Position numbers and translations under genes: made by a program. A DNA stretch of 64,000 nt from an uncultured Gemmatimonadales bacterium (lineage in GTDB: Bacteria; Gemmatimonadota; Gemmatimonadetes; Gemmatimonadales; GWC2-71-9), in NCBI GenBank assembly GCA_963836815.1, contig CAWILD010000014.1, positions 31,615-95,614 of the forward strand, written 5' to 3'. The notes beneath the pieces were generated by a model that was not told the origin of the DNA, searched no databases, and worked only from the letters and a program-made list of their open reading frames with translations. Below, in pieces: positions 3,518-45,213 of the stretch; the stretch's first letter is position 1, and each line of letters starts with the position of its first letter.

Positions 3518-5098
3518 ATGCCTCAGTCCCTGCTCCTCCCCGTTCTCGCGGGGGTGGCTGCCGGACTCGTAGTCGCATTGGTGTTCGTGCTGTACTACGT
3601 CCGGGCCCAGCGACGCTCGGCAACGGGAATTCTCGCGGCCGCCCGGGCAGAGGCCAACCGGCTCCGCGCGGACACGGTGCGTGAGGCCGAGTCCGCCAAG
3701 GCGGAAGTGCTGGTCGCCGCCAAGATGGAATCGCTCAAGTTGCGCGAGGACCTGGATCGCGAGATCCAGCGCCGGCGCGAGGAGTGGGAGCGACTCGAGC
3801 GCCGGGCCGAGGAGCGCAGCCGGGTCCAGGACCGGAAGCTGGAGGAGATCGAGGGCCGGGAACGGAATTTCGGCAAGCGCGAGGAGTCGCTGAGCCAGCG
3901 GGAGAACGCGCTCCGCGCTCGCGAGGGCGAGGCCGACCGCCTCGCGCAGGAGCAGCGGGTCAAGCTCGAGCGGATCGCGGGGCTCACCGCCGAGGACGCC
4001 CGGCGCGAGATCCTTCAGCGGGTGGAGGACGAGGCCCGCACCCAGGCGGCCGCGCTCGTGCGCGAGATCAAGGAGCAGGCCCGGAAGAGCGCCGACCGCG
4101 ATGCCCGACGGATCATCTCGATCGCGATCCAGCGCCTCGCCGCGGAGCACACCGCGGAGAGCACCGTCGCCGCCGTCCCCCTCCCGAGTGACGAGATGAA
4201 GGGGCGGATCATCGGCCGCGAGGGCCGCAACATCCGCGCGTTCGAGACCGCGACCGGCGTGGACGTGATCATCGACGATACGCCGGACACCGTCATCGTC
4301 TCCTGCTTCGACCCGATCCGGCGCGAGGTCGGCCGCCGCGCGCTCGAGGCCCTGATCCAGGACGGCCGGATCCACCCGGGACGGATCGAAGAGGTGGTCG
4401 GGAAGGTGCAAAAGGAGCTGGACACGCAGCTGGTGGAGCTCGGCGAGCAGGCGGCGTACGACACCGGCATCCACGGCATGCACCCCGAGCTGATCAAGCT
4501 GGTCGGCCGGATGCGCTACCGGACGTCCTACGGGCAGAACATCTACGACCACTCGAAGGAAGTGGCGTGGCTGGCCGGCATGATGGCGGCCGAGCTGCAC
4601 CTCGACGTGCAGCTCGCCAAGCGGGGCGGGCTGCTGCACGACGTGGGCAAGGTGCTCACCCACGACAGCGAGGGCACCCACGTCGAGCTCGGCGTGGAGG
4701 TCGCGAGGCGCTACGGCGAGACCGCGCTGGTGATCAACTGCATCCAGGCGCACCACGACGACGTGCCGCACGAGACCACCGAGTCGGTGCTGGTGCAGGC
4801 GGCCGACGCGATCAGCGGGTCGCGGCCGGGCGCGCGGCGCGAGGCGTTCGAGACCTACGTGAAGCGGCTCACCCGGCTCGAGGAGATCGCCAACGGCTTC
4901 CCCGGCGTGGAGAAGTGCAACGTGATCCAGGCCGGCCGCGAGGTCCGCGTGGTGGTGACGCCGGACCGGATCGACGACGCGGCGGCAGCGGCGCTGTCCG
5001 AGACCATCGCCCGCAAGGTCGAGAACGAGCTGCAGTATCCGGGACAGATCAAGGTGGTCGTGATTCGGGAGACGAGAGCAGTGGACTACGCTCGATGA
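3518..5098 (+). CDS. rny: ribonuclease Y
   Basis: 526 aa with an N-terminal TM helix, a long charged coiled coil, a KH domain ([15 protein letters not shown]) and an HD domain (LLHDVGK...HH). This is the RNase Y architecture. Confidence 0.92.
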
Positions 5099-5982
5099 GT
5101 GCTCGCATTCTGGATGGAACGGCGCTGGGCAAGACGATCCGCGCCGAGGTGGCTGCAGAGGTCGCGAGGTTGGGAGGAAACGGCACCAGGCCGGGACTGG
5201 CCGCGGTACTGGTCGGGGAGGATCCGGCGAGCGCCGTCTACGTGCGCTCCAAGGGGAAGGCCACCGAGGAAGCGGGCATGCACTCGGAGACGATCCGCCA
5301 GCCGGCGACGATCTCCGAGGACGAGCTGCTCGGCATCGTGGACCGCCTCAACGCCGACCGGAAGATCCACGGCATCCTGGTGCAGCTTCCGCTGCCCAAG
5401 CACATCGACAGCGAGAAGGTGCTGCGCCGGATCGATCCGGCAAAGGACGTGGACGGGTTCCACCCGGTGAACGTCGGCAAGCTGGTGACCGGCGACCGCA
5501 CCGCGTTTCGTCCGGCCACGCCGTACGGCGTGCAGCAGATGCTGGTCCGCTCCGGGATCGAGACCAAGGGCGCCCACGCGGTGATCGTCGGCCGGTCGAA
5601 CATCGTGGGCAAGCCGATGGCGAACATCCTGATCCAGCAGGGGCCGGGCGGCGACGCGACGGTGACGGTGTGCCATTCGCGCACGCGCGATCTGCCCGGC
5701 GTCACCCGGAGCGCCGATATTCTCATCGCGGCGATCGGGAAGGCGGAGTTCGTCACGGCGGACATGGTGCGGCCGGGCGCGGTGGTGATCGACGTCGGGA
5801 TCAACCGGGTGGACGACGCGTCGCAGCCCAAGGGCTATCGCCTGGTCGGCGACGTCGCCTACGGCCCCGTCTCGGAGGTCGCCTCCGCCATCACTCCGGT
5901 CCCCGGTGGCGTCGGCCCGATGACGATCGCCATGCTGCTGCAGAACACCCTGCAGGCTTGGCGGCAGCTGGAGTCTCGATGA
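5095..5982 (+). CDS. folD: bifunctional methylenetetrahydrofolate dehydrogenase / methenyl-THF cyclohydrolase
   Basis: ATG 5095 overlaps the rny stop. [73 protein letters not shown] is the FolD signature. Confidence 0.92.
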
Positions 5983-16072: not shown

Positions 16073-16156
16073 GCTCCGGTGGCGAAACTGGCAAACGCTA
16101 CAGACTTAAAATCTGTTGGGAGCAATCCCTTGTGGGTTCGATCCCCACCCGGAGCA
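16073..16156 (+). tRNA. tRNA-Leu (anticodon TAA)
   Basis: Acceptor GCTCCGG/CCGGAGC, anticodon stem-loop cagaCTTAAAAtctg (TAA), long variable arm, T arm gtgGGTTCGATCCccac, discriminator A. CCA is not encoded. Confidence 0.85.
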
Positions 16157-16157
16157 T
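16105..16157 (+). repeat. attL core (3' part of tRNA-Leu), direct repeat 1
   Basis: cttaaaatctgttgggagcaatcccttgtgggttcgatccccacccggagcat is identical to 31122-31174. Confidence 0.85.
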
Positions 16158-16192: not shown

Positions 16193-16220
16193 TTTGCACC
16201 ACCGTTTGCACTACGACCCC
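16193..16220 (+). repeat. tandem GTTTGCAC motif, putative integrase arm-type site (left)
   Basis: tttgcaccaccgtttgcactacgacccc lies 36 bp inside attL. A near-identical copy at 31015-31043 lies about 80 bp inside attR. Confidence 0.5.
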
Positions 16221-17437
16221 TATCTGACTTTCCGCCGCTGCTCGGCTTTAGTCACCTGCTTCTCCCAGTATGCGCGGTCGGCTCCGGTTGGGATGAACAC
16301 GCCGTACGTCGTCAACGTGAGCATTGGGGTCGAGTGGCCGAGCTGCGTCTGCACGACGGCGATGGGCACGCCAGCCCGGAGCCGCATCACGGCCCAGTGG
16401 TGGCGGGCCGCGTGGACTTTGAGCTTGCGGGTCAGCTCGAGCCTCTCGGCCGCGATCCAGCGGTGCCAGTGGTTGACCTGATAGGGCTTCCACTCGGCAG
16501 GGAAGAGCCGCGCGGTGGGCAGCATCCGCTTGACGTGCGCCGCGATGATGGGCCACGCCCAATCGGCTACCATGCACACCCGGTCCCTGGTATGCGTCTT
16601 GGTGCCTGCGGCTCGTATCTCCCGGCTCGCGTCCCACACATCGGCTCGGGTAAGACGCAGGGCTGTGCTCACTTCGATGCCGGTCCCGTACAGAATCGCG
16701 AAGAGTGCCCGCCTTTCGGGCGTCGCTTGTGCGTCCACGATCCGCCGCACCTCACCTAACTCATAGAACTCCACCGGCGCCTTCCCCTCGGCCGGTCGGC
16801 TCACAGCATCCATCGGGTTGGCGGAGAAGTGGCCGTGAACTCGGGTCACATATTCGAAAAACAGTGACCAAGCCGAATGAACCCGCCGAAGCGTATTCCG
16901 CTTACCGGGGTAAGCCGCCGACCTCTCCGTGAGCCACGCTGTGGTGACCCGGCTCAGGGAGCGCGGCCCGCCCTCAGGCAGCAGCCAGCGGACATGCACG
17001 AGGATCTGGTCGCCATAACCCGCGGAGACGCCCCGGCTGTGCGCCGTGTGCCATGGCTTCACGAGCGGCTCCAGGTCCACGTCGGCCAGGAGCCGCCGCA
17101 TCTCGACCACGTTGTAGCGAGTGGAGACCCACAAGTCGTAGAGCCGCCCGAGTCGCGCCGGTCGATCTCGTCGGCGTGCCATGAGGACAGGCTCGAGCAG
17201 GTCCCAGGCGCGGTGCTCGGCGGCGAGGCATTCCCACATCGCCGCGATCCGTTGGGCCAGCGCCTTCCCCCCAGCGGTGAGGGGAGCTACGGTCTGCAGT
17301 TGCCTGAACCTGCGTTGGGAAGATGCAGCCGCGCGGGGCCTCTCAGAAACGTGATGTGATGCCGCCGGGTGGTCTACTACCACCTCGCCCGCACTACCTG
17401 CGTTCCTGTTAGCGCTCATGGAGGGCACCGCCCTCAC
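16220..17437 (-). CDS. tyrosine-type site-specific integrase
   Basis: 405 aa. The C-terminal catalytic region carries R (LRLTRAD), HAARHHWAV (HxxR) and LGHSTPMLTLTTYGVF (catalytic Y). Adjacent to the tRNA. Confidence 0.85.
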   Translation of the reverse strand: MRAVPSMSANRNAGSAGEVVVDHPAASHHVSERPRAAASSQRRFRQLQTVAPLTAGGKALAQRIAAMWECLAAEHRAWDLLEPVLMARRRDRPARLGRLYDLWVSTRYNVVEMRRLLADVDLEPLVKPWHTAHSRGVSAGYGDQILVHVRWLLPEGGPRSLSRVTTAWLTERSAAYPGKRNTLRRVHSAWSLFFEYVTRVHGHFSANPMDAVSRPAEGKAPVEFYELGEVRRIVDAQATPERRALFAILYGTGIEVSTALRLTRADVWDASREIRAAGTKTHTRDRVCMVADWAWPIIAAHVKRMLPTARLFPAEWKPYQVNHWHRWIAAERLELTRKLKVHAARHHWAVMRLRAGVPIAVVQTQLGHSTPMLTLTTYGVFIPTGADRAYWEKQVTKAEQRRKVR

Positions 17438-17527
17438 GGAGCCCAGCGCCCGTCTAGTCTGTCGACTGCATGCGCAGGTTAAGCGGCCAGCCGGATCGAG
17501 GCGTTCGCCGAGCAGCGCTGATCGAGC

Positions 17528-18016
17528 CTAGCGCACCACGACCCTCTTGTGCATGCCGAGCATCACATGAGGTGGCTGGCCCTCTCCATCGCGGAACTGG
17601 CACACGATCGCGTACGTTCGCCCGGGTAAGAGATCCACCATCAGCTCGCCGCCGCTGGCCTGGGCTGGACGCGCGATGAGCACACCAATCAATGCGTCGA
17701 GGAGCTCTTGGGGATCACCATCGGTGCGCAGTCGTTCCAGCAGCTGTTCAAAGCTGATGCCGGGCTTCAGCAGCGCCATGACCAATTCATGGGGCACTCG
17801 TCCTCGGTTCTGGAACGAGATTAGCGTGCGCCCACCCGAGAGTGTGTCGGAAGCCTGAAAGGCGTAGTCTGTTCCGGCAACCGTCACCGTGCTGACCCGT
17901 TGGCGGCAGCTGGGGCTGACAGTCACGAGGGCAACGAGCGCAGCGGTCCGCGCGAGGCGCTCGCGAGCACTTCGAGGGACTCGCAAACAACGCATCGTAC
18001 CTTCCTTCGCGAGCAC
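17528..18016 (-). CDS. secreted hypothetical protein, possibly cupredoxin-like
   Basis: Signal or lipoprotein leader ALVALVTVSPSC. The C-terminal GRTYAIVCQFRDGEGQPPHVMLGMHKRVVV resembles Cys/His/Met copper-site strands. The assignment is weak. Confidence 0.45.
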   Translation of the reverse strand: MLAKEGTMRCLRVPRSARERLARTAALVALVTVSPSCRQRVSTVTVAGTDYAFQASDTLSGGRTLISFQNRGRVPHELVMALLKPGISFEQLLERLRTDGDPQELLDALIGVLIARPAQASGGELMVDLLPGRTYAIVCQFRDGEGQPPHVMLGMHKRVVVR

Positions 18017-18061
18017 TGGCCGAAGCCAATAGCGCCGCAGCGGCCAAGGTAGGGGGTGGCC

Positions 18062-18115
18062 GCCTAACTAGAATTAGACTGCGACCGCAGCAGTCTAAAT
18101 CCGCTCGTGTCAGGG
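18062..18115 (+). repeat. possible short diverged attC-like site
   Basis: GCCTAAC-tagaa-TTAGACTGC-gaccgca-GCAGTCTAA-atccgctcgt-GTCAGGG. The 9-bp inner stem is perfect, but the outer boxes are complementary at only 5/7 positions. Confidence 0.3.
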
Positions 18116-18377
18116 GACCAGCCGGTTGCCCAACTTACTATAACGATTCGCGCGATGCGGACGTACGCCCTCGACCATAATCGGGGGCCGTCAGAATGAC
18201 GCTGTGGAACAAGGGATAGCGTGGGCTGGCTCTCCATGCAGGCGGCCTGCCCAGCGTCTGCTGTCGCACTTTCAACGGACCGCGACAATTCTGCATCTCA
18301 TGCCGCCCCGCGTGGCCCGGTGTATGCGGTTCCCGACTTGACCCGAGGAAATCCGTATCGAGCCGCGCGCTGGTCGC

Positions 18378-18503
18378 TTGACAGCCCCGGTACGGCACCG
18401 TACATCAGGGGTACTCCACGACAAAGGCACACCCGGCGAAAGCCGGGGCCGCAACGCGCCGAGATGCGCTCGTGCGAAGATCCCCCTCGCAGAGGAGGTT
18501 TCC
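18378..18503 (+). promoter_or_regulatory. promoter + conserved hairpin leader, copy A
   Basis: TTGACA-17 nt-TACATC, then cacgacaaaGGCACACCCGGCGAAAGCCGGGGCCGCAacgcgcc (CCCGGC/GCCGGG stem, GAAA loop), a CCCCTC..GAGGAGG stretch and GTG 18504. Repeated at 26644 and 28333. Confidence 0.5.
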
Positions 18504-18834
18504 GTGTCCACACGCCTGCCTGCCCTTCTGCTTCCGGTCATCCTCGCCTGCTCCCGGTCCACAGCCGAGAGCGCCTCTAGCGCCGCTCCTGTTAGCAGTG
18601 AGAACGATGAAGCGGCGCGCCGGGGCCGTTTCGCAGCTGGAGGATGAATGGGCAAACGCCCTCGAGGCGCACGACACGACGTTCTTGGCTCGGGTGGTTG
18701 CTCCCGACTTAACCACATCGAGTGTCACGCAGGGCCCCCTGCAGAACTCCACGTTCCACGCGCATCCCTGGAGAACGCTCTACTCGAGCGGGCCTCCGCG
18801 CCCGTCCGGCCTGTCGGCTGCATTTGCGGGTTAG
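18504..18834 (+). pseudogene. DUF4440/SnoaL-like lipoprotein, frameshifted and truncated by an attC half-site
   Basis: The lipoprotein signal VSTRLPALLLPVILAC is in one frame and ..QLEDEWANALEAHDTTFLARVVAPD.. in another, with at least two shifts. The 3' end runs into the inverted attC half-site at 18806-18838. Confidence 0.55.
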
Positions 18835-18838
18835 GCGG
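18806..18838 (-). repeat. solo attC left half (R''-L''), inverted orientation
   Basis: The reverse complement reads CCGCCTAACCCGCAAATGCAGCCGACAGGCCGG, the conserved attC left end. No matching right end was found. Confidence 0.6.
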
Positions 18839-18855
18839 CGTGCATGAATGTTCGA

Positions 18856-19056
18856 TTACATCTGCCTCTCGACCTGGCGCACGAGGCGAAAAGCCCAGAT
18901 GGCAAGCGCTGCCGGGAGGAGGAGGCCGATCACGGAGACCCAGAGCGGTACGACCCAATCGCCTAGTTCGGCCGGTACCCGGTACACAAGCCGAAGAAGG
19001 TGGCCGAGCGCGATGAGCCCGAACAAGGTGCCCGAGATTTGCAGATAGTACCTCAT
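18856..19056 (-). CDS. small membrane protein (2 TM), unknown function
   Basis: 66 aa with two hydrophobic helices (ISGTLFGLIALGHLL, VSVIGLLLPAALAIWAF). GGAAGGAAA lies 6 nt upstream of the ATG. Confidence 0.5.
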   Translation of the reverse strand: MRYYLQISGTLFGLIALGHLLRLVYRVPAELGDWVVPLWVSVIGLLLPAALAIWAFRLVRQVERQM

Positions 19057-19113
19057 TGGCTGTTTCCTTCCAGGGGCGGGCGAAGCCCCCTTTCTGACCG
19101 GGCTGGTGCTGCC

Positions 19114-19265
19114 GCCTAACGAAAATGCGCATCAGCCGCGGGGCCATCGTGCCGATGCCCGCACAAACCTACGCTCCATACGTCCCACAGCGCGCTCCAG
19201 GTGCGCTGCGACCGAGCGGAGGGCAGCGCTACCTCCGGCCCGTCGGCTGCATGCGCGGGTTGGGC
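19114..19265 (-). repeat. attC site, inverted orientation (152 bp)
   Basis: The minus strand reads GCCCAAC-ccgcgcatgcagccgacgggccgg ... gcggctgatgcgcattttc-GTTAGGC. It belongs to the long-class family found in the main array. Confidence 0.75.
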
Positions 19266-19366
19266 CGCACCCGGCGCAGCTGCGAACTATGAACCTTCGG
19301 GCCGCCGTCTTGGGCGGACTTACAGCTCCAATGAGCGCGCCTGCCACAATGCCTACCGGGTTTATC

Positions 19367-22274
19367 TCACTGCTCCTGAGTGAGGCGCTCGAGCGCCCCT
19401 CGTGCCTCGGCCACATACGGCTGAAGCTCCGGGTCAGCATGTCGCCACGCATCGGCTACGAACTGGTAGGCCCGGATGGCGGCCCTGCGCTCGCCCAGCC
19501 GCTCCGCCGCCCGCGCCCCTTCGAGGACACCGATGACGCGCAAGCACTGAAATGGGAGACACTGCCGTCAATTCCGATCTCTCGAGCACGGTCCGATCAT
19601 CCCCGCGGGTGGCCTGCAGCCCCAACCTGACAAGGGGCTCGAAATAGCAGACGGCACACAGGGAATCGGGAAGCTGCTCGAATCGCCGAAGTGCATCGGC
19701 CGTATCATGCCGCACCAGCGCGAGGTACGCGTGCGCGGCCTCGCCTCCGAATACGGCCTCCTCGCGCAGTACCGGGTCCGGGCTCGACCTCAACAGTGAG
19801 TCGGCGAGCTCCCGGAATCGCAGGATCGAGCGGGCGTCACCATGGCTCGCCCACCAGGGGAGCGCGACGCGCGCGGTCCGGAGATCGCCAGCGCGTAGCC
19901 ATCGGTCGAAGTAGAACCCGGCGGTGTCGGCGGGGTAGAGACCCTGGAGGGCTAGTTCCGCGAACACTCCGGGAGCGGCGATGGGATCAGGGCTCAACGC
20001 CGCGGCTGCTTCACGCAGATGTCCGCGGAAATGAAGCGTGCTGGCCAGCTTCCTGCGACGCATCTCGCTCGTGAGCCAGGCGGCGGAGCTGTCGGGACTT
20101 GCCGCCAGGGCCCGCGCGACGCGCACGGCGACCTCCCCGGTGTCGGCCGCGTTCACCCCTGCGTACCAGGCCTTGTGGAGCGTGATGGCCGACGCCAGCT
20201 CGAGCCGTCGCTGCATCGCCGATCCGGATTGCCTGGGGTCGGGCAGATCGAGTCCGAGGCGCGCCCCGTCGGCGGTCACGTCGCCGGGGGCAAGCTTGAG
20301 GTACTCCACCGCGTAGCGCCGTGCTGCGTCGAGACCACGAGCGGCGGATGCCATCTCGAAGGGGTGGATGTAGGCCGGGGCGTAGGCGGAATCCAGCGCG
20401 ATTGCACGATCGAAGGCAGCAATCGTCTCGGAGATCGGGATCGCTCGGCCCTGGTGACGGTAGACCTCACCAAGTGTGTACCAGGCATCGGTGTCATTGG
20501 GGTACCGGCGCACGGCCTCTTGCGCGGTCGCGAGAAGTCGTCGGTAGGCCGCCCACGTCAGCATCCCCTCCAGCTGGTTGGAGTCCACCGCGACGAGGAG
20601 GCTGTCACGCGGCGCGAGACCATGATTCAGCGCCCCGGCCCGGAGCGAGAGTGCGACGGACAGAGATTCGCCGTCGGCTCGTTGCCAGCCCACCACGCGG
20701 CCGAGCCGCCAGAGCGCCAGCGCGAAGCTGCTGTCGAGGGCTGCAGCGCGCTCGTAGGAAGCCAGCGCCGAGTCCCACGCGCCGTGGCGGAACCACTGCT
20801 CACCCTGCAGAAACGCCTTCATCGCGGCCGGCGAGGTCGAGCCGAGCGATGCGATGCCCGTGAGCTCGACGCGTCTGGCACGGCCGAGCGCACCGAGGAC
20901 TCGCACCGCGAGCGAGTCGCCCAGTCGGTCGATCCTGCTCACCTCGTCCTGCAGCTCGAACTCTCCCAGCGGTCGTCCGGTCTCGACGTCCAGCAGGGTG
21001 GCGCGGACACGGGCCGAGTCCCTGCCGGCGGGTACCAGGCTCCCGAAGAGGCTCAGCCGCGCACCGGTCCGCCGGCCGAGCTCGGCGGCCGCCAACGGAT
21101 CAGCGTGCCCGGACCAGCGCCGTACGACGGCCGTGGGCGGTACCGTGCGAATCGGGCCCGCGCCATCGAGGTTGCGGGAGAGCAGGTCTACCAGCCCCTC
21201 GCGCCACAACTCGAATGAGGGTGAGAGGACGTCGAATGGAGCAACCGCGAGAAGATCAGTATCGAGCGCGCGGGGCGCCGCCTTCTGACGCCACAGCAGC
21301 GCCACCGCCGCTGCGCCCACGGCGATCGCGAGTCCCAGGCCGACCAGGACCGCCCGGCCCGGTCGACGAACTCTTGACGACGGCGGCGGCGCGGACAGCG
21401 CCCGCAGGAATTCCGCGACTGTGGCGAACCGATCGGCCGGGACGACCGCCAATGCCTTTTGAACGGCCGCATCCACGGCCGGGGGCACCGTCGGGCGCAG
21501 CCGACTCAATGCCGGAGCGGGTTGGATGAACCGCTTCGCCACGACCGCCTGCGGCGTCGGCCCGGTGAAGGGCGGCTCTCCAGCGAGCATCTCGTGGAGC
21601 ACGCATCCCAACGCATAGATGTCAGTCCGGGCGTCCACCAGCCCGGCGCCGGCCTGTTCCGGGCTCATGTACGTCGGCGTGCCGACGGCGAGGCCGGTAC
21701 CGGTGAGCTCCTCGCCACCAGCCGCCTCGACCGCACGCGCGATCCCGAAATCCCCCACCCGGGCGTGCCCATGGGCGAGCAGGATGTTTTCGGGCTTGAT
21801 GTCCCGGTGGATCACGCCGTGGCGGTGAGCGTAGTCCAGCGCGTCCCCTACCTCCCGCGCAATCGCGAGCGCGTCGTCCAGCGGCAGCTGCGGCTCCCTT
21901 CGGAGCCGATCCCGGAGACTTTCCCCCTCGACGAATGGCATCGTGTACCACAGGCGACCGAGGGTCTCGCCCGAGTCCAGCACCGGCAGGATATGGGGGT
22001 GATCCAGGCGTGCCGTCAGCTTGATCTCGCGGAGGAAGCGCTCCGGTCCCAGTGCCGCCGCGAGCTCCCCGTGTAGCAGCTTCAGGGCGACGTGACGGTC
22101 GTGTTTCTCGTCGCGGGCGAGATAGACCGTCGCCATGCCACCGCGCCCGAGCTCCCGGTCAATCATGTAGCGGCCCCGAAGGGCATCAGTCAGAGACGAA
22201 TCAATCGCGGTCACGAGACTGCCAGGTGGGAGACTACTAGAAGGTGATGACAGGATCCCGATGAATATTAGCAA
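19367..22274 (-). CDS. Ser/Thr protein kinase with large TPR-like C-terminal region; one frame break near the 3' end
   Basis: Hanks kinase motifs GRGGMATVY, VALK, HRDIKPENIL, DFG, TPTYMSPE, followed by a TM segment and a helical-repeat region. The last ~70 codons continue in another frame (..LRVIGVLEGARAAERLGERRAAIRAYQFVADAWRHADPELQPYV..) to the stop at 19367. Confidence 0.85.
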
Positions 22275-22301
22275 GGTTCACCGGGTGACACAGGCCAGCT
22301 G

Positions 22302-22385
22302 GGTGAACAGCGGCAGGCTATCTATCTCTTAACCCTTCGAAGCTCCACGGGGTTAAGAGAGAGAGATAGAGCTGAGCTGTTCACC
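22302..22385. repeat. 84-bp near-perfect palindrome (MITE-like or terminal-repeat pair)
   Basis: ggtgaacagc-ggcagg-ctatctatctcttaaccc / gggttaagagagagagatag-agctga-gctgttcacc. One arm recurs at 62165-62204. Confidence 0.6.
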
Positions 22386-22715
22386 TTTCCCTTAGAGCTC
22401 AAGTCTGACCAACAGCGTCATTACGGCAGCTATCGAGCACCCTTGAGCGCGAACGCGCCCTCAGCGCATAGAATTAGAGCGCAGGTCACAGGAAGTTTGG
22501 ATCTGACACGACGTGATTTGGGCTGGCGGGCACCGCAGTCTACTTCTAGTTGGGCAGCAGGGGAGGAGTTCAAGTCACGGCCGGGATACGCAGGAACAAC
22601 AGCGTGCCGCGACTCACACTTGAAGGCACCATGTTTGGTCATGTAATCGGCTTGCCCCTCCTCGCTCTCGTGGCCACTCCGTTTACATTGCCTATACACT
22701 CCGCATCCAAGTCTT

Positions 22716-23549
22716 ATGAGTGACCCATTAGCAGCGGCCAAGCTCAAGGCTGAGACAGCCTACAATGCTGCCGCAGACTACTTCGACGCCGAGCCCTTGG
22801 GGTTCTGGGCGCGGTATGGCCGGCGGACCGTCGATCGGCTGCGGCTGCATCGTGGGGCGCACGTACTGGATGTGTGCTGTGGCACCGGTGCCTCCGCGTT
22901 ACCTGCGGCGGAAGCCGTCGGCCCCGAGGGCCACGTCATCGCAGTTGATCTTGCGGGCGAACTCCTCGCCCTTGGCCAGGCCAAGGCCCAGGCCGCAGGG
23001 CTGCAGTGCGTGGAGTTCCGTCGTGGGGACATGACAGACTTGGGCTTTCCCGATCGTCATTTTGACGCGGTGGTCTGTGTGTTTGGGATTTTCTTTGTCC
23101 CGGACATGGAGCACCAGGTGGCGGAGCTATGGCGCATGGTGCGGCCCGGCGGGCAGCTGGCGATCACCACGTGGGGCACACGATTTTGGAGCCCGGCGTA
23201 CGAGATTTGGTTGGAAGCCGTGCGCCGAGTGCGCCCCGATCTGTATACCGCATTTAACCCTTGGGACCGCATCACGACACCGGAGGCGGTCCGCACGCTC
23301 CTCCACGACGGTGGTGCTCAGAGTATCGATGTTGCTGCAGAAGAGGGGTACCAGAAACTGCGCACGCCAGAGGATTTCTGGATCATGGCACTGGGGAGTG
23401 GCCTGCGGTGGACGATCGATAAGATGGGCTCCGAGTTGGCACGCGAGGTGAAGCACGAGATCCTAGACCGGCTTGCTGCCGCGGGGGTCGATCGCGTTGC
23501 AACCAACGTCATCTATGCCACCGCCGAGAAGCCGTCAGGCCCGGCCTAA
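22716..23549 (+). CDS. class I SAM-dependent methyltransferase
   Basis: VLDVCCGTGASALPAAEAV (motif I), VIAVDLAGELL, and FDAVVCVFGIFFV. The stop TAA lies inside the R''-like box of the following attC. Confidence 0.8.
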   Translation: MSDPLAAAKLKAETAYNAAADYFDAEPLGFWARYGRRTVDRLRLHRGAHVLDVCCGTGASALPAAEAVGPEGHVIAVDLAGELLALGQAKAQAAGLQCVEFRRGDMTDLGFPDRHFDAVVCVFGIFFVPDMEHQVAELWRMVRPGGQLAITTWGTRFWSPAYEIWLEAVRRVRPDLYTAFNPWDRITTPEAVRTLLHDGGAQSIDVAAEEGYQKLRTPEDFWIMALGSGLRWTIDKMGSELAREVKHEILDRLAAAGVDRVATNVIYATAEKPSGPA

Positions 23550-23703
23550 TATCGCTTGGGCCGACCGCACTAGTTCTAGCATCCCCTGGCTGCCGCCCGC
23601 CCCCGACCACCGCTCGGCCACAGCGCGCCCTGGCGCGCTGTGGAAGGAAGGTTTGTGCGCGGGGAACGATGATGCCCGGTAACTGATGCGCAAGTCGCTA
23701 GAC
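23544..23703 (+). repeat. degenerate attC site (160 bp)
   Basis: GCCTAAT..gggccgac ... ggaaggtttgtgcgcgggg..ggtaactgatgcgcaagtc-GCTAGAC. The interior matches the long-class attCs, while both outer boxes are mutated. Confidence 0.55.
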
Positions 23704-23963
23704 CCCGAAGGAGAGCCTATGCCGCGTTGGGAATACGCATCCGGAGTCTCCCAGGAGCGCCAGCCCGGTCCATGGCGACGAGTAAAGAGCCTGCCACCCA
23801 TCGGGCGTGACCTGGAGGGTACTGTAGTACGCTTCGAACCACACCGCGGCGACTCCTGGGAGAGGCGCTCGGCCCCGACCACCGGGGGAGGCGTGGACTG
23901 GCCTTCGAGAGGGACTGCGACGGCAGCGCGGGATAGCGCAAGGGTGACGCACAGGAGACGCAT
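23698..23963 (-). CDS. small secreted hypothetical protein (frame break; weak call)
   Basis: The signal-like start MRLLCVTLALSRAAVAVPLEG is in one frame and ..VWFEAYYSTLQVTPDGWQALYSSPW.. in another, ending at 23698. Confidence 0.25.
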
Positions 23964-24185
23964 ACTCTCCTCCATCCATCAGCTGGTTGGCAAGGGAGCT
24001 CGCGCTCGAGCGTGTAGCGGTCGCCAGGGCGGCCTTGAACCTTTCTAGGTCTCGCTCGGAGAGACCTGTCGGACTGGGGTATGTTAGGCTACAGGCCCCA
24101 GGTCCCTGTCGGACCAGACACGCCCGCCGGAGGTTGGTCGAGAAAGAGAGGACAGTTGGGAAAGCGGCCCTGCTCGGGATCGACG

Positions 24186-26643: not shown

Positions 26644-26824
26644 TTGCGTGATATAGCGCAACGCTATATACTGTACCTGCCAACCGAGAGAGCACACCCG
26701 GCGAAAGCCGGGGTCGCAAAGCCACGGATCCTCGCCTCCTCCGCGACGCCGGCCTTCGGCCAGCCACCACCGAGGTCCCAAGATCGCCGAGCTGCTGCTA
26801 TTGCAGGCTCGGCGTTTTCTTGTT
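26644..26824 (+). ncRNA. candidate small RNA: promoter + hairpin-leader module (copy B) ending in an intrinsic terminator
   Basis: TTGCGT-17 nt-TATACT; core GCACACCCGGCGAAAGCCGGGGTCGCA at 26692-26718; CCTCGCCTCCTCC stretch; stem GCCGAGC[tg]CTGC-TATT-GCAGGCTCGGC followed by GTTTTCTTGTT (26786-26824). No start codon follows at the position seen in copies A and C. Confidence 0.35.
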
Positions 26825-27011: not shown

Positions 27012-28012
27012 ATGAAGCCAATTGCCATTAGCAGTCTGAGGTGCTCAATGCGGAAAATGGCGCTTGGATTTCCTATCCCCTTGGGAGGGAGCATGCACGT
27101 CCCGTTACATGCGCTCGAAGCCTGGAGCGCTCCGCGGCTCGCCCGCAGCGCGCACACCGCCGTCCGTGTCTCGCTTGGGATTGTCCTCGGATCAGGTGCC
27201 GCCCTGCTCACGGCGTGCGGAGATTCACCGGGCCGCCCCCTCCCTCGCCTGCCGCCGAAAATCCAGCATTTGTTGTGGGCGGCACGAGCGACGCGGCGAA
27301 CCGGTACGCGAACGTCGGCGTCCTGCAGCTCAACGTCGGCGGCGACGACTGGTTCGACTTCTGCTCGGGGACGCTGGTCCGCCCGAACGTCGTCCTCACG
27401 GCCGCCCACTGCACGGACTTCCTGGTCGAGGAGGGGGAGGACGGGTTCGGCCCCGCCGACCTGCGGATCTCGTTCGATCCGGAAGGCGACGCTCCGTACT
27501 CGACGGTCGACCACATCGTCGTGCATCCGGACTGGTTCACGAGGCAGGAGCCGTGCCGAGGCAACTCGAAGCAGCTCTGCCTGGCGCCTCCGGCCGAGGA
27601 CATAGGGCTCGTCTTCCTGGACGCTCCGGTCGGCGGCATCACCCCGGCGCCCATCGCCGATCCGACGTACCTGGCCGGGCTCAGCCTCACTGGCGAGACG
27701 TTCACCGTCGTGGGATACGGCGTCGATGCGTTCATCACCGGGAGCACGTTCGCCAACCATCCGGTCGTGTTCGTCGACGGCATCCGGAGCTACCGGGACG
27801 TCTCGGTGATCACGACGCACGACGCGTTCCCGGATCGGTTCCTGAAGATCACGCAGAGCATGTGCTTCGGCGACTCGGGCGGCCCGCTCTTCCACGGGGC
27901 CACGCTCGTCGGAATCAACACCTGGACGTTCAGCCTGCGGTGCTCGGGGCCGAACTTCGCGTACCGCGTCGACTCGCCGGCAGCGCAGAGCTTCCTCGCG
28001 GCGAACCTCTAA
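27012..28012 (+). CDS. secreted trypsin-like S1 serine protease; one frame break
   Basis: AGGAGG precedes ATG 27012 (ATG 27093 also has GGGAGGGAG). Lipobox AALLTAC. After a shift in C-run 27236-27240: VVGGT.., TAAHC (His), DIGLV (Asp), GDSGGP (Ser). Confidence 0.8.
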
Positions 28013-28332: not shown

Positions 28333-28456
28333 TTGACGGCCCCTGTACCGCGTCCTATCTCAGGGCCTACCATCCCTCGACAAAGGCACACCCGGCGAAA
28401 GCCGGGGCCGCAGCGCCACGGGTCCTCACGCTCGGTCAGACGGACGGGAGGAGGGC
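28333..28456 (+). promoter_or_regulatory. promoter + conserved hairpin leader, copy C
   Basis: TTGACG-17 nt-TATCTC, ctcgacaaaGGCACACCCGGCGAAAGCCGGGGCCGCAgcgcc (core 28385-28412), then a TCCTC...GGGAGGAGGG pairing and ATG 28457. Confidence 0.5.
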
Positions 28457-31014: not shown

Positions 31015-31043
31015 TTTGCACCACCGTTTGCACTATAGACCCC
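31015..31043 (+). repeat. tandem GTTTGCAC motif, putative integrase arm-type site (right)
   Basis: tttgcaccaccgtttgcactatagacccc, compared with 16193-16220. Confidence 0.5.
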
Positions 31044-31121: not shown

Positions 31122-31174
31122 CTTAAAATCTGTTGGGAGCAATCCCTTGTGGGTTCGATCCCCACCCGGAGCAT
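31122..31174 (+). repeat. attR core: duplicated 3' part of tRNA-Leu, direct repeat 2
   Basis: Identical to 16105-16157. It lacks the 5' half of the tRNA, so it is not a gene. Confidence 0.85.
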
Positions 31175-31556
31175 GGAGTTGGCCGCAGTAGTCTTCGTTA
31201 CCGCACCCCTTCGCACCACCGGCTGCTTCAACGAGGTGTAACTTGGCCGAGGACGATGTCGACCGCAGCACGGGCGAAACCCGCAACCAAGCCCAGGCGG
31301 TGATTCACAGTCCCGAAGCCAACCTGCTGTGGCCCCAGAGCACCTAAGGATCATCGCAACTATCCTCGCCGGCGTGAGCCTCCAGTGTCTCACGCTGGCG
31401 GCGCGTGCGTGGTTGCAGCCCGACGCAGCACCCGGCGCAGCGAGCCCGGAGCGGACCGCCTTTCGCGGAGGCTTGATACTCTTCGTTGTTTAACTCGGCG
31501 TACTCGGCGCGCTGTGGCTGATCTCGGTTCCCCTCGGCTGGAGGCCCGATCGTGTC

Positions 31557-34596: not shown

Positions 34597-34753
34597 GCCT
34601 TATCCGGTTGTCGTGCCCCCGGGCAACAGCCGACAGGCCAGGGTGGGGCGGCGCTCCGCTCGGGCGCGTCGCTCCTGGGGGCCATCGAACGGAGGCGTTG
34701 AATTGTACTGGCGGCAGGCCGATCGCCTGCAGCTGATGCGGCATCCGTTAGGC
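34597..34753 (+). repeat. attC site with degenerate left end (157 bp)
   Basis: GCCTTAT..caacagccgacaggcc ... gatcgcctgcagctgatgcggcatcc-GTTAGGC. Confidence 0.6.
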
Positions 34754-34877
34754 CGATGCCCGGGCACCCAGCGACGCGGGCTAGGGCGTGTAGATCTGCC
34801 CATTGACGAGGATTGGCCCTTGCCACAGTTCTTCGACGTGGGCGACATGCCAGCCTTGCGGGAGGCGACGCCACACC

Positions 34878-35237
34878 TCACTGTCGGGTGTGGACCGTGG
34901 CCGTATCTCCCTGTAGCGTAAGGCTGTCAATCTGGATGTCGATCGTGCCATTCTCCGCGATCACCGACCAATCTCGCAAGAGGTTGGCCCGGAGCTGCTC
35001 TTGGGTGAGGAGTTCGCTATGCTCGTCCCCGGCAGTGTCGTTCTGCAGGGTGAAATCGGGTGTCTGCACTGAGAGCAACGCGTCGATGTCCTTATCCCGG
35101 GTTGCCTGCACGCTACGCGCGATCTGGGCCGCGATGGCCGCCCGCGCGATCCCGACTTCCTGAGCCGGGCCAGAGGGCCTCGGCGTGCAGGCTGCGGCGA
35201 CCCAGATGGGCACACTCCAGCAGCGGCTCAGTGCCAT
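34878..35237 (-). CDS. DUF4440/SnoaL-like lipoprotein
   Basis: ATG 35237; signal MALSRCWSVPIWVAAAC; ..AIAAQIARSVQATRDKDIDALLSVQTPDFTL.. The longer ORF upstream is read-through of an attC remnant. Confidence 0.55.
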   Translation of the reverse strand: MALSRCWSVPIWVAAACTPRPSGPAQEVGIARAAIAAQIARSVQATRDKDIDALLSVQTPDFTLQNDTAGDEHSELLTQEQLRANLLRDWSVIAENGTIDIQIDSLTLQGDTATVHTRQ

Positions 35238-35308
35238 GTGGGGCTCTCCTCGAGGCGTGACACAGTGTCGGACACCGAGCAGAGCGAAACGGTTGCCTAC
35301 GCTGCACG

Positions 35309-35354
35309 GCCTAACCCGCGCATGCAGCCGGCAAGCGCCGCCACAGGCGGTAGG
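35309..35354 (+). repeat. truncated attC (left end only)
   Basis: GCCTAACCCGCGCATGCAGCCGGCAAGCGCC then divergence. The only R'-like box is GGTAGGA. Confidence 0.5.
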
Positions 35355-35362
35355 AAGGCGAC

Positions 35363-35851
35363 GTGAGTCGCGGTACGGTCTCTCGTCGCGTGCGCATTGT
35401 GCTGCTGGCATTGCTTAGTGCCGGGTACTTCCTGGCGCTCTACGTGTTCTTCCGACCGGTCCAAGTGCGCATCTGGAATTACTTCAGCGCCGTCGATGTC
35501 TTCATGATGGCGTGCCTGATTCTCCCCTTCATGGTAGTGCCTCTGCTCGTCCCCCCACGTCACCGTGTGACCCGATATGCTTGGGCCGTCAGCGCCGTGA
35601 TGGCGCTGGATCTCGTGTTTTTCGCGGTGGCCGAGTTTGGACCGCTGGGGACCGGCCATCCGTCATTGGAATCGATGGGCTCGTACTTCCTGGCGATGGC
35701 CAAGCCGGTACTCGTCCCCGTGGCACTGGCCCTGCTGAGTGTCGCGTGTGTCAAAGGCGAACATATAGCCCTCGTCGCGACTGGGTTTCTCTGTTTGGCC
35801 GGGGAGACGCTATACGGGACGTACCCGACGGCGTGGTGGGGAACCGCCTGA
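35363..35851 (+). CDS. integral membrane protein, unknown function
   Basis: 162 aa with 4-5 hydrophobic helices. Bounded by attC sequences on both sides. Confidence 0.5.
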   Translation: MSRGTVSRRVRIVLLALLSAGYFLALYVFFRPVQVRIWNYFSAVDVFMMACLILPFMVVPLLVPPRHRVTRYAWAVSAVMALDLVFFAVAEFGPLGTGHPSLESMGSYFLAMAKPVLVPVALALLSVACVKGEHIALVATGFLCLAGETLYGTYPTAWWGTA

Positions 35852-35922
35852 ATGAAGCCGGAGCGATGTTGCACGCTGGCCCAGGGCCAAGGGGGGCGCT
35901 CTCGCGCCCTGCGTGACGTGCT

Positions 35923-36028
35923 GCCTAACCCGCGCATGCAGCCGACGAGCGCTGGCGCTAGACTCCGTTCGGGTGGCACCCTCCTGCGCGAGCTTGATTG
36001 CCCGCGCCTGATGCGCAATTCGTTAGGC
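35923..36028 (+). repeat. attC site (106 bp)
   Basis: GCCTAAC-ccgcgcatgcagccgac ... cgcgcctgatgcgcaattc-GTTAGGC. Confidence 0.8.
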
Positions 36029-36068
36029 GGACCCGACGACTCGCCTGTGACTTAGTAGGAGTCTGGTA

Positions 36069-36428
36069 ATGCCCCGCATAGCCCCCGAGATTTTCCGGAA
36101 GCGGCTCCTCATCGAGGGGTACTTCGCACGTCAGGACCTGAATGCCGAGATCATCCGAGACTATTTCAAGCTCATCACTGGCCAATTGGGCCTGCGCACC
36201 TATGGGGACCCGATCGTCCACCACACCAGCGGGCAGGGCAAGGCGATCAATGAGGGGTATGACGCCTTCGTGCCGCTGATCGACTCCGGTATCTATGTCT
36301 GCATCTGGTCTGGTCCGCGCTTCGCCTCGGTGATTCTCTACACCTGCGCGGAGTTCGATGAAACGCGTGCAACCGATCTGACGCGGGAGTTCTTCGCGAT
36401 GACTGAGTGGGAGACCACGCTGTTCTAG
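36069..36428 (+). CDS. S-adenosylmethionine decarboxylase-related family protein
   Basis: 119 aa. ..VHHTSGQGKAINEGYDAFVPLIDSGIYVCIWSGPRFASVILYTCAEFD parallels the SpeH-type ..LAESHISIHTWPE..D.FTCG core. Recognised from memory. Confidence 0.5.
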   Translation: MPRIAPEIFRKRLLIEGYFARQDLNAEIIRDYFKLITGQLGLRTYGDPIVHHTSGQGKAINEGYDAFVPLIDSGIYVCIWSGPRFASVILYTCAEFDETRATDLTREFFAMTEWETTLF

Positions 36429-36660
36429 TCCACCAGTCCAGGTCCGTGGGCGGGTGACTCCTGGGCGCTGCATGCCGGTGGGTCAAGCCGTCAGCACCTG
36501 CACATCGACTATTACACCAAGCTCATGCTCACCCTCCTCGGAGGTTGTCTGCTCATGATTGTATTCCGAAGTGACTCCTGGGTTGACAAGGCAGTCGCGC
36601 AAGCTGCCATTACCTGTAAGGGCGAGCTAAAGGCGAACGCACACGGGGGCACTGAGGCGA

Positions 36661-37230
36661 ATGTCGGTGGATATCAGATCCAGGTCAGCTGTCGCTGAGC
36701 GTTCGGGCGTGAAAGCCTCCGTATTCATTGGCACCAGTGTCGACGGCTTCATCGCGCGAACCAATGGTGACCTCGATTGGCTGCCGGCCGGCGGAGGCGA
36801 AGAGCACGGGTATGAGGCGTTCATCGCCTCCGTCGATGCGCTGGTGATCGGCCGCAAGACGTTCGAGACCGTGTTGACCTTCGATGCGTGGCCATACGGT
36901 GAGAAGCCCGTCTACGTGTTGAGCACCCACGAACTGGCGCCCGCTCCCGTCGGGGCGGTGGTGGAGCGACTGGAGGGCCCTCCGGCCGACGTCGTGTCGC
37001 AACTCAGCGCTCGCGGCGTCCGCCATGCGTACGTCGATGGCGGCATCACGATTCAGCGCTTCCTTCAGGCCGGCTTGATTCAGCGCCTCATCATCACGCG
37101 CGTGCCGGTGCTGCTCGGAACCGGGATTCCACTGTTCGGGGTCACGGGGCGTGACATCATCCTCACCCACGTCGGAACGCGCCAGTACGCCAGTGGCCTC
37201 GTCCAGAGCGAGTATACGGTCGCCACTTAG
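36661..37230 (+). CDS. dihydrofolate reductase-like (RibD C-terminal domain) protein
   Basis: ..VFIGTSVDGFIARTNGDLDWL..VDALVIGRKTFE..PVYVLS..VDGGITIQRFLQAGLIQRLIITRVPVLLGTGIPLF. GTG 36709 is a likelier start than ATG 36661. Confidence 0.75.
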   Translation: MSVDIRSRSAVAERSGVKASVFIGTSVDGFIARTNGDLDWLPAGGGEEHGYEAFIASVDALVIGRKTFETVLTFDAWPYGEKPVYVLSTHELAPAPVGAVVERLEGPPADVVSQLSARGVRHAYVDGGITIQRFLQAGLIQRLIITRVPVLLGTGIPLFGVTGRDIILTHVGTRQYASGLVQSEYTVAT

Positions 37231-37358
37231 CCCAGATGGCAATGCAGTCGGCAACCGCGGACCGGCCGGAGCTCCCTGGAAGGCGGCTCTCGACCAGGCG
37301 GTACCCCGCGTAGGTTCACCAGCCTGCCGAGGGGATCCACAACGGAGCCGTCGAGCTC

Positions 37359-37844
37359 ATGACCTACATTCCCCCGGATGCGGGCGAAGCCCTTTGGATC
37401 GGCACCTTTGGCGTCATCTATAAGGTACCGGCCGAGACCACCGCGAGCGCCGTTGCCGTCGTCGAGCATGTGCTTGGCCCCCTACAGCTCGGCGCCCCCT
37501 TCCATCGCCACAGCCGCGAGGACGAGATCTCCTACGTGCTCGATGGCGTGCTCACCGTCCAGCAGGGTGAGCAGATCGAAACGGCCGGTCCTGGCGGCAC
37601 GATCGTGAAGCCCCGAGGCGTCTTCCACGCCTTCTGGAATACTGGTGCGACGCCGGTCCGCTTCTTGGAGGTGATCGCACCAGGTGCTTTCGCCCAGTAC
37701 TTTCGAGAGCTTGCTCCGCTGCTGGCACAGCCCGGCGCTCCCGACCTCGAGGGCGTGGTCGCCCTGGCGGGCCGCTATGGCATGGAGTTCGACTTGGCCA
37801 GTCTGCCGGGGCTGCTCGAGCGCCACGGCCTGCGGGCCGGCTGA
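37359..37844 (+). CDS. cupin domain protein
   Basis: G(x)5H.H..E motif region APFHRHSREDEISYVLDGVLTV and the second motif GTIVKPRGVFHAFWN. Confidence 0.7.
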   Translation: MTYIPPDAGEALWIGTFGVIYKVPAETTASAVAVVEHVLGPLQLGAPFHRHSREDEISYVLDGVLTVQQGEQIETAGPGGTIVKPRGVFHAFWNTGATPVRFLEVIAPGAFAQYFRELAPLLAQPGAPDLEGVVALAGRYGMEFDLASLPGLLERHGLRAG

Positions 37845-37884
37845 CGGCAGGAGCTCCAAGGCGGACGCGCACGAGGATGGTCCC

Positions 37885-38268
37885 ATGCTCGAGGAGTGGA
37901 CTGAGCCGCCTCCGATGAGCCCGGTGGCACCTGCGCCGGCCGTCCTTTCTTCTGATAGCACGCTCTGGCTGGCCTACCGGATCGCACGCGATCCGCACCA
38001 CTGCGCGGTGATCCGGTTTCACCACGTGCAACAGTACGCGTGGGGCGCACCGCCCGCCGTCTATGGCCTGGAGAGCCTGGGCGCGCTCTCGCAGGGCAGT
38101 TTCTACGAGGTCCCGGTGGCGAGCGGGGAGACGGGCGGTGTCGGCCGTCGCTGGCTGATCACTTTTCCCGATGCGATGCTCGAGGTACGGGCCGCTGACG
38201 CTGAGGTCGTTCTCCGAGCTGCCGCGGCGCTCGGCCCGGCCCACGCTCTGGCGGCCCTGCTCAGCTAA
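37885..38268 (+). CDS. hypothetical protein
   Basis: ATG 37885, 127 aa, coding-like composition. No family recognised. Confidence 0.4.
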   Translation: MLEEWTEPPPMSPVAPAPAVLSSDSTLWLAYRIARDPHHCAVIRFHHVQQYAWGAPPAVYGLESLGALSQGSFYEVPVASGETGGVGRRWLITFPDAMLEVRAADAEVVLRAAAALGPAHALAALLS

Positions 38269-38321
38269 GTGGCGGCGCAGACGCGACGAGTTCAGGATGC
38301 GATTCCGTCCGGAGAACCAAC

Positions 38322-38789
38322 ATGGCATCAATCGACGAAGTGCTCGCACAACAGGATCCTACGACCTTCGCTATCGCACTCAGCGATCTGGTGTTTCCCC
38401 GGTGCGATCGGGATGGGTTCGACGCCCTCAGCCCGGCTGAGCGAGTGGCCTACTGCGTAGATGCGCTCGAGCGCGAGGTCAACAACGGCGGGTTTCATCA
38501 GTTCTTTCTGAACTCCTCCGGTGACACGACCGCAGAGACCGCGGCTGCACTTCAGGCGATCGGTGCGGCCGCGGCAGGGAGTCTCTTGGCGCGAGCAGTT
38601 GTCGCTTTTCCCGGCGGCCAGCCACCGAAGGACCGCGAGCAGCGAGTGAAGATCCTCGAGGGCGTCTCCGAAGAAACACGGGAGACTTGGTTGGCCCTGG
38701 ACGACGAGTTCTACACCTATCCCGATGACCTGACGGCGCTCATGCGCCGCTTTGTGGAGCTCCATCGGGGAGAGTTCCGGGCGTGGTAG
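38322..38789 (+). CDS. DUF4375 (DMP19-like) domain protein
   Basis: The hallmark LEREVNNGGFHQFFLNSSGD plus ..LDDEFY.. are typical of this family. Confidence 0.7.
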   Translation: MASIDEVLAQQDPTTFAIALSDLVFPRCDRDGFDALSPAERVAYCVDALEREVNNGGFHQFFLNSSGDTTAETAAALQAIGAAAAGSLLARAVVAFPGGQPPKDREQRVKILEGVSEETRETWLALDDEFYTYPDDLTALMRRFVELHRGEFRAW

Positions 38790-38811
38790 GGGTCGGAGCT
38801 CGGCGCGCGGT

Positions 38812-39615: not shown

Positions 39616-39784
39616 ACTCCGCTCCTTGAGGAAACCGTCGGTGGGCAGCGCACAGGTAAATCGCTCCTCCTAAGACGGCGATGGCGAGACCGACAGCACA
39701 CCGTCGTCCCCGCCGAGCCGCTGTCCCGAGGCCGCCACCCTTATCATTCGGATGACGTACTCGACACCTACTCCGGATGTGTAG

Positions 39785-40363: not shown

Positions 40364-40392
40364 GCTCCCTTCGAATTCCGAGCCTGGCTCCT

Positions 40393-40420
40393 GCCTAACC
40401 AAGGGCTGTGCGGTCGGCGG
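40393..40420 (+). repeat. eroded attC left end
   Basis: GCCTAACCAAGGGCTGTGCGGTCGGCGG resembles the left end of the attC at 52274 (GCCTAACCAAGCGTTGGAGCGGTCCGCCGG). No R' is present. Confidence 0.4.
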
Positions 40421-40438
40421 ACATCGCCAGGAGAAGAC

Positions 40439-40840: not shown

Positions 40841-40844
40841 GGCC

Positions 40845-45208: not shown

Positions 45209-45213
45209 GGACG

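Follow-up and report, generated by a model that had tools for sequence, protein, structure and literature searches.

Mostly decayed attC sites and integron cassette genes inside a tRNA-Leu island beside a large cassette array of a Gemmatimonadales-type genome

In SGI1 and SXT-type elements, complete active integrons (intI plus attI) reside on functional mobile elements that have a tyrosine recombinase of their own, and an older 'secondary site' literature on integrase-mediated insertion exists. For cassettes without an integrase gene, the concept of attC site clusters that have no integron integrase (CALIN) is available (Cury et al. 2016, PMC4889954). CALINs and single attC sites lacking integron integrases (SALINs) hold attC sites and cassette genes without a nearby intI, in clusters of one to three, and either array loss or rearrangement or the insertion of cassettes into the genome has been proposed as their origin (PMC4889954; bioRxiv 10.1101/2022.09.11.507474). 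Integrase-mediated insertion at genomic G|WT sites was shown experimentally for IntI1-3, and SALINs and small CALINs were proposed to be footprints of such insertion (Loot et al., bioRxiv 10.1101/2022.09.11.507474). Here, attC sites and cassette genes were analyzed that lie inside an island integrated at a tRNA-Leu gene, within a stretch of 64 kb (hereafter the window; GC content about 65-70%). The names of its closest database relatives indicate a Gemmatimonadales-type genome.

At the level of sequence, it was shown that three linked genes of the island (orf162, orf66 and a methyltransferase gene) are bona fide integron cassettes, and that the island sites share homology with the attC family found in the adjacent array. 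In IntegronFinder terms, the region is a small CALIN (17.4-19.3 kb), with three minus-strand attC sites within 1.9 kb (17383-19265), and a SALIN (22.7-23.7 kb), formed by the methyltransferase cassette with one plus-strand site (23544-23703); there is no intI in the 64 kb. As with other CALINs and SALINs, the lineage also has complete integrons. Unlike in the usual case, the sites lie inside a delimited tRNA island beside a far larger array and in both orientations, and three of the four are decayed or truncated. The best explanation, held with a little better than even confidence, is that cassettes were inserted off-array into a degraded tRNA-Leu island and then decayed. Cassettes outside their integron are a known phenomenon, and the case represents neither a new mechanism nor a new kind of element. 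The features concerned are the following, with scores referring to the covariance model R1.

17383-17484, minus strand: attC-C, truncated attC of the orf162 cassette, abutting the island recombinase gene int (R1 24.8 bits, E 3e-5; alignment 17349-17484)
17528-18016, minus strand: orf162, cassette gene of unknown function, 162 amino acids (aa) (94% aa identity to P0121)
18062-18068, minus strand: R' box GTTAGGC, at which the orf162 cassette has its exact 5' boundary (alignment of the window with locus L122)
18707-18836, minus strand: attC-B, full-length decayed attC of the orf66 cassette (R1 34.9 bits, E 2.9e-8)
18856-19056, minus strand: orf66, small two-helix membrane-type cassette gene, 66 aa (orthologues between attC sites)
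19114-19265, minus strand: attC-A, complete, structurally intact long-class attC (R1 98.4 bits, E 2.9e-27)
22680-23543, plus strand: methyltransferase cassette body, gene 22716-23549 (orthologues flanked by attC sites)
23544-23703, plus strand: attC-D, decayed attC of the methyltransferase cassette (R1 23.8 bits, E 5.9e-5, at 23574-23703)
34615-64000, plus strand: adjacent attC array, not part of the island (sites at 34615-36028, a 12.8-kb gap, then dense from 48837 up to the end of the window)

For model R1, 14 clear attC sites were taken from the array only (34.6-64 kb, plus strand); its training set contained none of the tested island sites. The consensus fold of the training alignment was the canonical attC hairpin and comprised 24 pairs, of which 11 showed compensatory changes. 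In the array repeats, spaced 0.4-1.5 kb apart, R'' (GCCTAAC) is separated from L'' (CGCGCATGCAGCCG) by a spacer of 2 nt; after a variable centre come L' (CAGCTGATGCGCA) and, beyond a spacer of 5 nt, R' (GTTAGGC). Array and island sites form one attC family in which the R''-L'' (GCCTAACCCGCGCATGCAGCCG) and L'-R' boxes are conserved. The whole window was scanned on both strands with filters off, and the recombinogenic bottom strands were folded with DNA parameters. Four island sites obtained significant scores (98.4, 34.9, 24.8 and 23.8 bits), as compared to a top match of 10.6 bits (E 0.5) in the control, the 16-kb stretch of core genes to the left of the tRNA gene. A blastn comparison of the island with the rest of the window recovered these four sites again, with their orientations unchanged. 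Core boxes of the forms R'' RYYYAAC and R' GTTRRRY were found across the island sites, with mutated or lost boxes as given below for each site. A further R1 match within a trypsin-like gene (27308-27358; 15.6 bits, E 0.017) was taken as chance. Orphan GTTAGGC heptamers numbered three, with about 1.8 expected from base composition in 15 kb on both strands.

A preliminary description of this DNA had placed five attC sites or half-sites inside the tRNA island, in both orientations, and had proposed an attC covariance scan. Run with the family model, the scan accepted three of the five, rejected two as attC sites and added 17383-17484 (attC-C), which that description did not contain. Its general claim stood, since the sites belong to the attC family of the array and the linked genes are cassettes elsewhere. 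An inverted fragment suggested at 24060-24088 had to be dropped: no R1 match was obtained at E<=10 on either strand, nor any blastn match to the attC sites of the array. A short stretch resembling a kinase N-terminus lies nearby (about 23996-24034, minus strand). The suggested short site at 18062-18115 is not an attC either (R1 8.8 bits, E ~2, at 18062-18079 on the minus strand); the GCCTAAC at 18062-18068 within it is the R' boundary of the orf162 cassette.

That the sites might be chance matches or intrinsic island repeats, and not derived from attC at all, is extremely improbable and, for the four main sites, already refuted. The candidates at 18062-18115 (taken whole) and 24060-24088, the weakest two, do look like chance matches, but E values of 3e-27 to 6e-5 were obtained from a model untrained on the main sites. 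The idea of intrinsic repeats, which the preliminary description had itself raised against its claim, does not agree with the comparison of other loci: elements with related integrases were found without attC sites of the array's family, and the linked genes are ordinary cassettes in canonical arrays elsewhere.

The presence of cassette orthologues in canonical arrays is the strongest evidence that the island sites are cassette boundaries. orf66, orf162 and the methyltransferase gene each form a unit of open reading frame (ORF) and attC that recurs in arrays elsewhere. The orf66 orthologue in L064 (83% aa identity) lies between attC 5341-5483 and attC 4919-5056 of a uniform array; more distant orthologues were found in L048 and L091, the L048 copy again between two attC sites. 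A three-way alignment of the window, L064 and L048 was colinear through attC, cassette and attC. The site on one side, attC-A, is complete, as the preliminary description had stated. Its bottom strand folded into the canonical hairpin of R box, spacer and L box, with 7-bp R boxes and a bulged L stem like those of array members, whereas R1 gave only 8.8 bits for the plus strand of the locus. The boxes on the minus strand are GCCCAAC and GTTAGGC, and the identity to array attC sites was 73-75% by blastn, in inverted orientation. Only attC-A, one of four, kept the canonical fold with an unpaired spacer and an L''/L' stem with extrahelical bases; the others lost L''/L' and/or R''/R' pairing.

The site on the other side of orf66, attC-B, had been described as a solo inverted left half at 18806-18838. 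The R''-L'' part is real, with no mismatch to the array consensus at 18815-18836. It is not solo, being part of a full-length decayed attC (18707-18836) with a conserved central region, a broken L' and the boxes GCCTAAC and GTTAAGT. attC-B aligned with the attC sites 3' of the orf66 orthologues in L064 and L048 and showed no canonical fold.

The relative of orf162 in L122, P0121, is an ordinary cassette gene between attC 3620-3748 and attC 4331-4466 of a uniform array. DNA homology between the window and L122 was 88.8% over 698 nt, and its onset was exactly at GTTAGGC (18068 to 18062, minus strand). Upstream of this boundary, the window is unrelated to L122 and the DNA is not attC. The homology stops at 17383, inside the attC site and about 37 nt short of R'. 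In attC-C, R''-L'' and the centre are kept while the final ~37 nt (L'-R') are gone, leaving R'' GCTTAAC as the only R box. attC-C matched array attC 48840-48936 by blastn and does not fold canonically.

Methyltransferase orthologues (74-96% aa identity) are bracketed by attC sites in more than 12 metagenome loci. The DNA homology began at 22680 in all loci compared; therefore, the first ~60 nt of this cassette, including its R' boundary, have been lost. attC-D starts at 23544, upstream of the R1 match start at 23574, because comparison with the L125 cassette identified its R''-L'' boxes at 23544-23571 (GCCTAAT here versus GCCTAAC in L125). This comparison and the R1 score uphold the degenerate attC at 23544-23703 directly after the methyltransferase, as well as the TAA stop of the gene within its R'' box, both of which had been noted before. 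R' reads GCTAGAC, so that both R boxes are mutated, and L'' is broken; the 3' half differs from the L'-R' consensus of the array by three mismatches, and no canonical fold was obtained. A derivation of attC-C and attC-D from one attC split by a single inversion was rejected, both sites holding the same central region.

Between and beside the cassettes lie segments of other origin:

18074-18098, no strand assigned: unique perfect 9-bp-stem hairpin TTAGACTGC-N7-GCAGTCTAA, not attC (R1 8.8 bits, E ~2)
18417-18706, plus strand: non-cassette segment with a partial aptamer of the cyclic di-GMP (c-di-GMP)-I type and a frameshifted lipoprotein gene (Rfam, Pfam, translations)
19278-22338, minus strand: Ser/Thr kinase-TPR module with its gene at 19434-22274; independent block of 3.06 kb (Pfam Pkinase/TPR; L205)

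The DNA at 18069-18706 is non-cassette DNA on the strand opposite to the flanking cassettes. Its aptamer (18417-18464) matched Rfam RF03167 with 36.3 bits, below the gathering score. The lipoprotein gene (18505-18706) is frameshifted and truncated at its 3' end, and its Pfam DUF4440 match (profile positions 2-31 of 107) ends within a few residues of the R' box of attC-B. The hairpin is separated by 5 nt from the orf162 cassette boundary, and its arms resemble attC core boxes (GTTAGAC/GTCTAAC); no other copy was found in the window or in 123 loci. The kinase block was 95.4% identical to L205 over 3064 nt, where it has other neighbours. One of its junctions lies 13 nt from R'' of attC-A and the other, its upstream breakpoint, in the centre of an imperfect palindrome (22290-22370) with arms of about 20 bp, CTATCTATCTCTTAACCC...GGGGTTAAGAGAGAGAGATAG; the L205 locus has one of these arms. 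The kinase was also considered as a large cassette owning attC-A and rejected as such, since the L205 block stops 13 nt before R'' and no attC follows it there.

The c-di-GMP-I aptamer was observed three times inside the island. A riboswitch upstream of a trypsin-like protease gene (26681-26799) passes the Rfam gathering score, and two truncated copies of the aptamer (18417-18464, already named, and 28376-28421) precede other secreted-protein genes. Similar units of aptamer and lipoprotein gene flank the orf162 cassette in metagenome locus L123.

Two junctions between cassette and non-cassette DNA fall at the crossover position. At 18068/18069, the start of the orf162 cassette meets non-attC DNA at G|TT. 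At 18707-18713, R' of attC-B (GTTAAGT, read 18713-18707) is joined to the truncated lipoprotein gene where the weak DUF4440 match ends, which also fits G|TT. These features would be shared with experimental insertion into genomic attG sites (bioRxiv 10.1101/2022.09.11.507474): a boundary at G|TT, unconstrained orientation and cassettes left stranded. Unlike in those experiments, the insertion here is proposed from sequence alone, and the cassettes concerned have further boundaries that are illegitimate breakpoints. In the proposed course of events, an integron integrase acting in trans would have inserted cassettes into the island at non-att (secondary or attG, G|WT) sites, at least twice and in either orientation. 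The resulting hybrid junctions would have been beyond excision. The cassettes would then have decayed and been cut by later deletions and incoming modules, including the arrival of the kinase block and a deletion fusing attC-C to the int gene. The integrase activity is assumed to have come from elsewhere in the genome or from a former host. The window holds no intI, but true intI genes adjoin the same attC family in related genomes. Among the three scenarios of the preliminary description, insertion at secondary sites fits the junctions best.

A competing explanation requires no secondary-site insertion: the cassettes may be left from an old part of the same array, one that once reached the tRNA-Leu gene and was scrambled by modules, inversions and deletions. 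This is unlikely, yet it has points in its favour. The left end of the adjacent array is itself eroded (the first attC, 34615-34753, is decayed, 35309 holds only a half-site, and ordinary genes make up the 12.8-kb gap); attC-A, orf66 and attC-B form a contiguous piece of array; several breakpoints are illegitimate; and kinase pseudogene fragments lie beside truncated attC sites at 58.5-58.9 kb and about 24.0 kb. On the other hand, the two junctions lying exactly at G|TT with non-attC DNA would be coincidence under random breakage, and both orientations within 5 kb would need at least two rearrangements. The cassettes also lie between direct, exact 53-bp repeats, and an inversion across the right-hand repeat (attR) would have flipped it. 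The related proposal that the island integrated into an older part of the array fits poorly: insertion was site-specific into the tRNA gene and the repeats are still direct; therefore, the array DNA would have had to enter the island afterwards. An inversion arising from recombination of the kinase gene with the kinase fragment at 58.7 kb was rejected as well, since the two are only 70% identical and attR would have been flipped.

The preference for off-array insertion is tempered by several results. No comparator with an empty site was found, so that no junction can be demonstrated to be a simple insertion. The 3' end of attC-C, the 5' end of the methyltransferase cassette and the DNA upstream of attC-A are illegitimate breakpoints and not G|TT; therefore, rearrangements unrelated to the integron integrase clearly occurred. 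At the lipoprotein junction, the match to DUF4440 is weak (E 0.16) and the ORF contains a frameshift, so the truncation of a DUF4440-like gene claimed in the preliminary description is weakly supported; the missing 3' part of the gene was not found in the window. Finally, tblastn searches of the 64-kb window with IntI1 and with the Gemmatimonadales IntI of L015 detected no intI.

The island itself is delimited as follows:

16073-16156, plus strand: tRNA-Leu(TAA), integration target of the island (ARAGORN; Rfam tRNA 58.1 bits)
16105-16157, plus strand: attL core, exact 53-bp copy of the 3' part of the tRNA gene (direct repeat; pairwise alignment)
16220-17437, minus strand: island tyrosine recombinase (int), not an integron integrase (Pfam Phage_integrase E 2.5e-10)
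31122-31174, plus strand: attR core, the other exact 53-bp repeat of the tRNA 3' part, marking the right end of the island (direct repeat; pairwise alignment)

Positions 1-16 kb of the window hold ordinary core genes, galK being the last before the tRNA gene. The island spans 15 kb, as given by the exact repeat of 16105-16157 at 31122-31174, and it has the marks of a tRNA-targeting island, since int adjoins the tRNA gene and the 3' end of the tRNA is repeated directly at the opposite boundary. A motif, TTTGCACCACCGTTTGCACTA, was observed just inside both ends (16196-16216 and 31017-31037), with a diverged copy just outside attR (31210-31228); these copies may be integrase binding sites of the arm type or remnants of tandem integration. 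Overall, the island looks degraded and mosaic. Its interior is a patchwork of modules, each with its own history.

The int product failed the integron integrase model TIGR02249 (38.8 bits versus a cutoff of 265). Its relatives (57-79% identity) adjoin tRNA-Leu(TAA), tRNA-Met or tRNA-Lys, and lie in elements of a phage-like or integrative type that have excisionase-like and replication genes. int was also considered as an integron integrase with 17463-17484 as its attI; this was rejected due to the failed TIGR02249 match and to the relatives being tRNA-island or phage integrases without attC sites, and 17463-17484 is the R''-L'' end of the orf162 cassette's own attC. The stretch of int conserved with its relatives begins at residue 47 (about 17299), which corresponds to Met1 of P0005, with 77% identity from there on. 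Further upstream, the ORF runs into the attC-C remnant, and the DNA preceding the conserved start is either this remnant or other DNA.

Whether the island could carry its cassettes onward was weighed next to these findings. It seems quite improbable that they are mobile cargo, picked up in a previous host and moved by a functional island independently of any integron. The exact 53-bp att repeats are intact, the int ORF is uninterrupted with a conserved catalytic region, the int family serves phage-like and integrative elements, and the cassette orthologues are 83-94% identical to those of other genomes. Against this, the island has neither an excisionase (HTH_17) upstream of int nor a replication module, both of which lie immediately upstream of int in relatives (an excisionase, for example, in L006 and L008), and the native 5' end and promoter of int were replaced by an attC remnant. 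A functional excision and integration module, comprising an excisionase and an intact int with its own promoter, was thus not found. No second island copy with the same cargo was found in genome or metagenome collections; a scan of these collections with the island integrase gave no close relatives, and exact-sequence look-ups of three window proteins gave no match. The closest int relative at the same galK-tRNA site, 77% identical and on the P0005 contig of another metagenome, has different neighbours. The second route of horizontal movement envisaged in the preliminary description is therefore doubtful, the more so as three of the four attC sites do not fold. It is very improbable that the island would still be excisable and serve as a vehicle that moves cassettes among Gemmatimonadales genomes via tRNA-site integration. 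If this were true, the orf66 cassette would still be releasable, attC-A being intact, int would now owe its expression to an attC-derived 5' region, and two different tyrosine-recombinase mobility systems would be functionally coupled in an environmental phylum. SGI1 and SXT-type elements likewise hold cassettes inside an element with its own tyrosine recombinase, unlike the present locus, in which only attC fossils in a degraded island were found. The cassettes of the island are best regarded as passengers stranded in a recombination-prone hotspot, and would be no working part of it.

The array outside the island resembles the sedentary chromosomal arrays of the Vibrio and Xanthomonas type in its homogeneous attC family, which is widespread in one clade, the Gemmatimonadales. 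The same family was found in at least 113 stretches of Gemmatimonadales metagenome-assembled genomes (MAGs), often with several loci and both orientations per contig. True intI genes adjoin it in L015, L024 and L042, with 53% identity to IntI1. In these three loci, intI (1154-2095, plus strand, in L015) was observed upstream of the cassettes and co-oriented with them, an 'inverted integrase' layout unlike the divergent intI of class 1 integrons. The window differs from arrays of the Vibrio and Xanthomonas type in having no intI or attI, and the related loci in having intI co-oriented and not divergent. A complete integron (intI, attI and array) is not present in the window, and no similarity to the intI-proximal or attI regions of L015, L024 and L042 was found at 18.04-18.5, 22.2-22.7 or 31.2-34.6 kb. 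A stretch of 31-36 aa at 50175-50300, just before attC 50310-50447, resembles the conserved IntI core (47-55% identity to residues 112-147 of IntI1 and to the Gemmatimonadales IntI, E 0.002-0.014) and may represent a piece of intI lying in the array.

Single cassettes of the array recur in other MAGs at 85-99% identity; therefore, cassette exchange is active in the Gemmatimonadales clade. One cassette of 1.6 kb (60520-62127), encoding a 475-aa PLD-domain protein (60614-62041), was 98-99% identical in L114, L079, L113, L056 and L018, which represent several different Gemmatimonadales MAGs. This conservation, far above that of neighbouring cassettes, suggests a very recent spread. The gap at 36030-48830 has no attC match and contains ordinary-looking genes, including RibD_C, cupin, DUF3280 and alpha/beta hydrolase genes, a fusion of response regulator and pyridine-nucleotide oxidoreductase and a histidine kinase. 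At 58500-58535, an attC ends after its R''-L'' half and an AT-rich stretch follows; the region up to 58945 includes a frameshifted N-terminal Ser/Thr kinase fragment (58682-58911, plus strand) with about 70% DNA identity to the island kinase.

Taken as off-array insertion followed by decay, the island provides a well-resolved natural case of cassettes stranded outside their array, in a little-studied phylum with very large attC repertoires. It also illustrates the speed at which such sites decay, with three out of four predicted to be dead. The two boundaries at the exact crossover position support the idea that many SALINs and small CALINs are footprints of off-array insertion.

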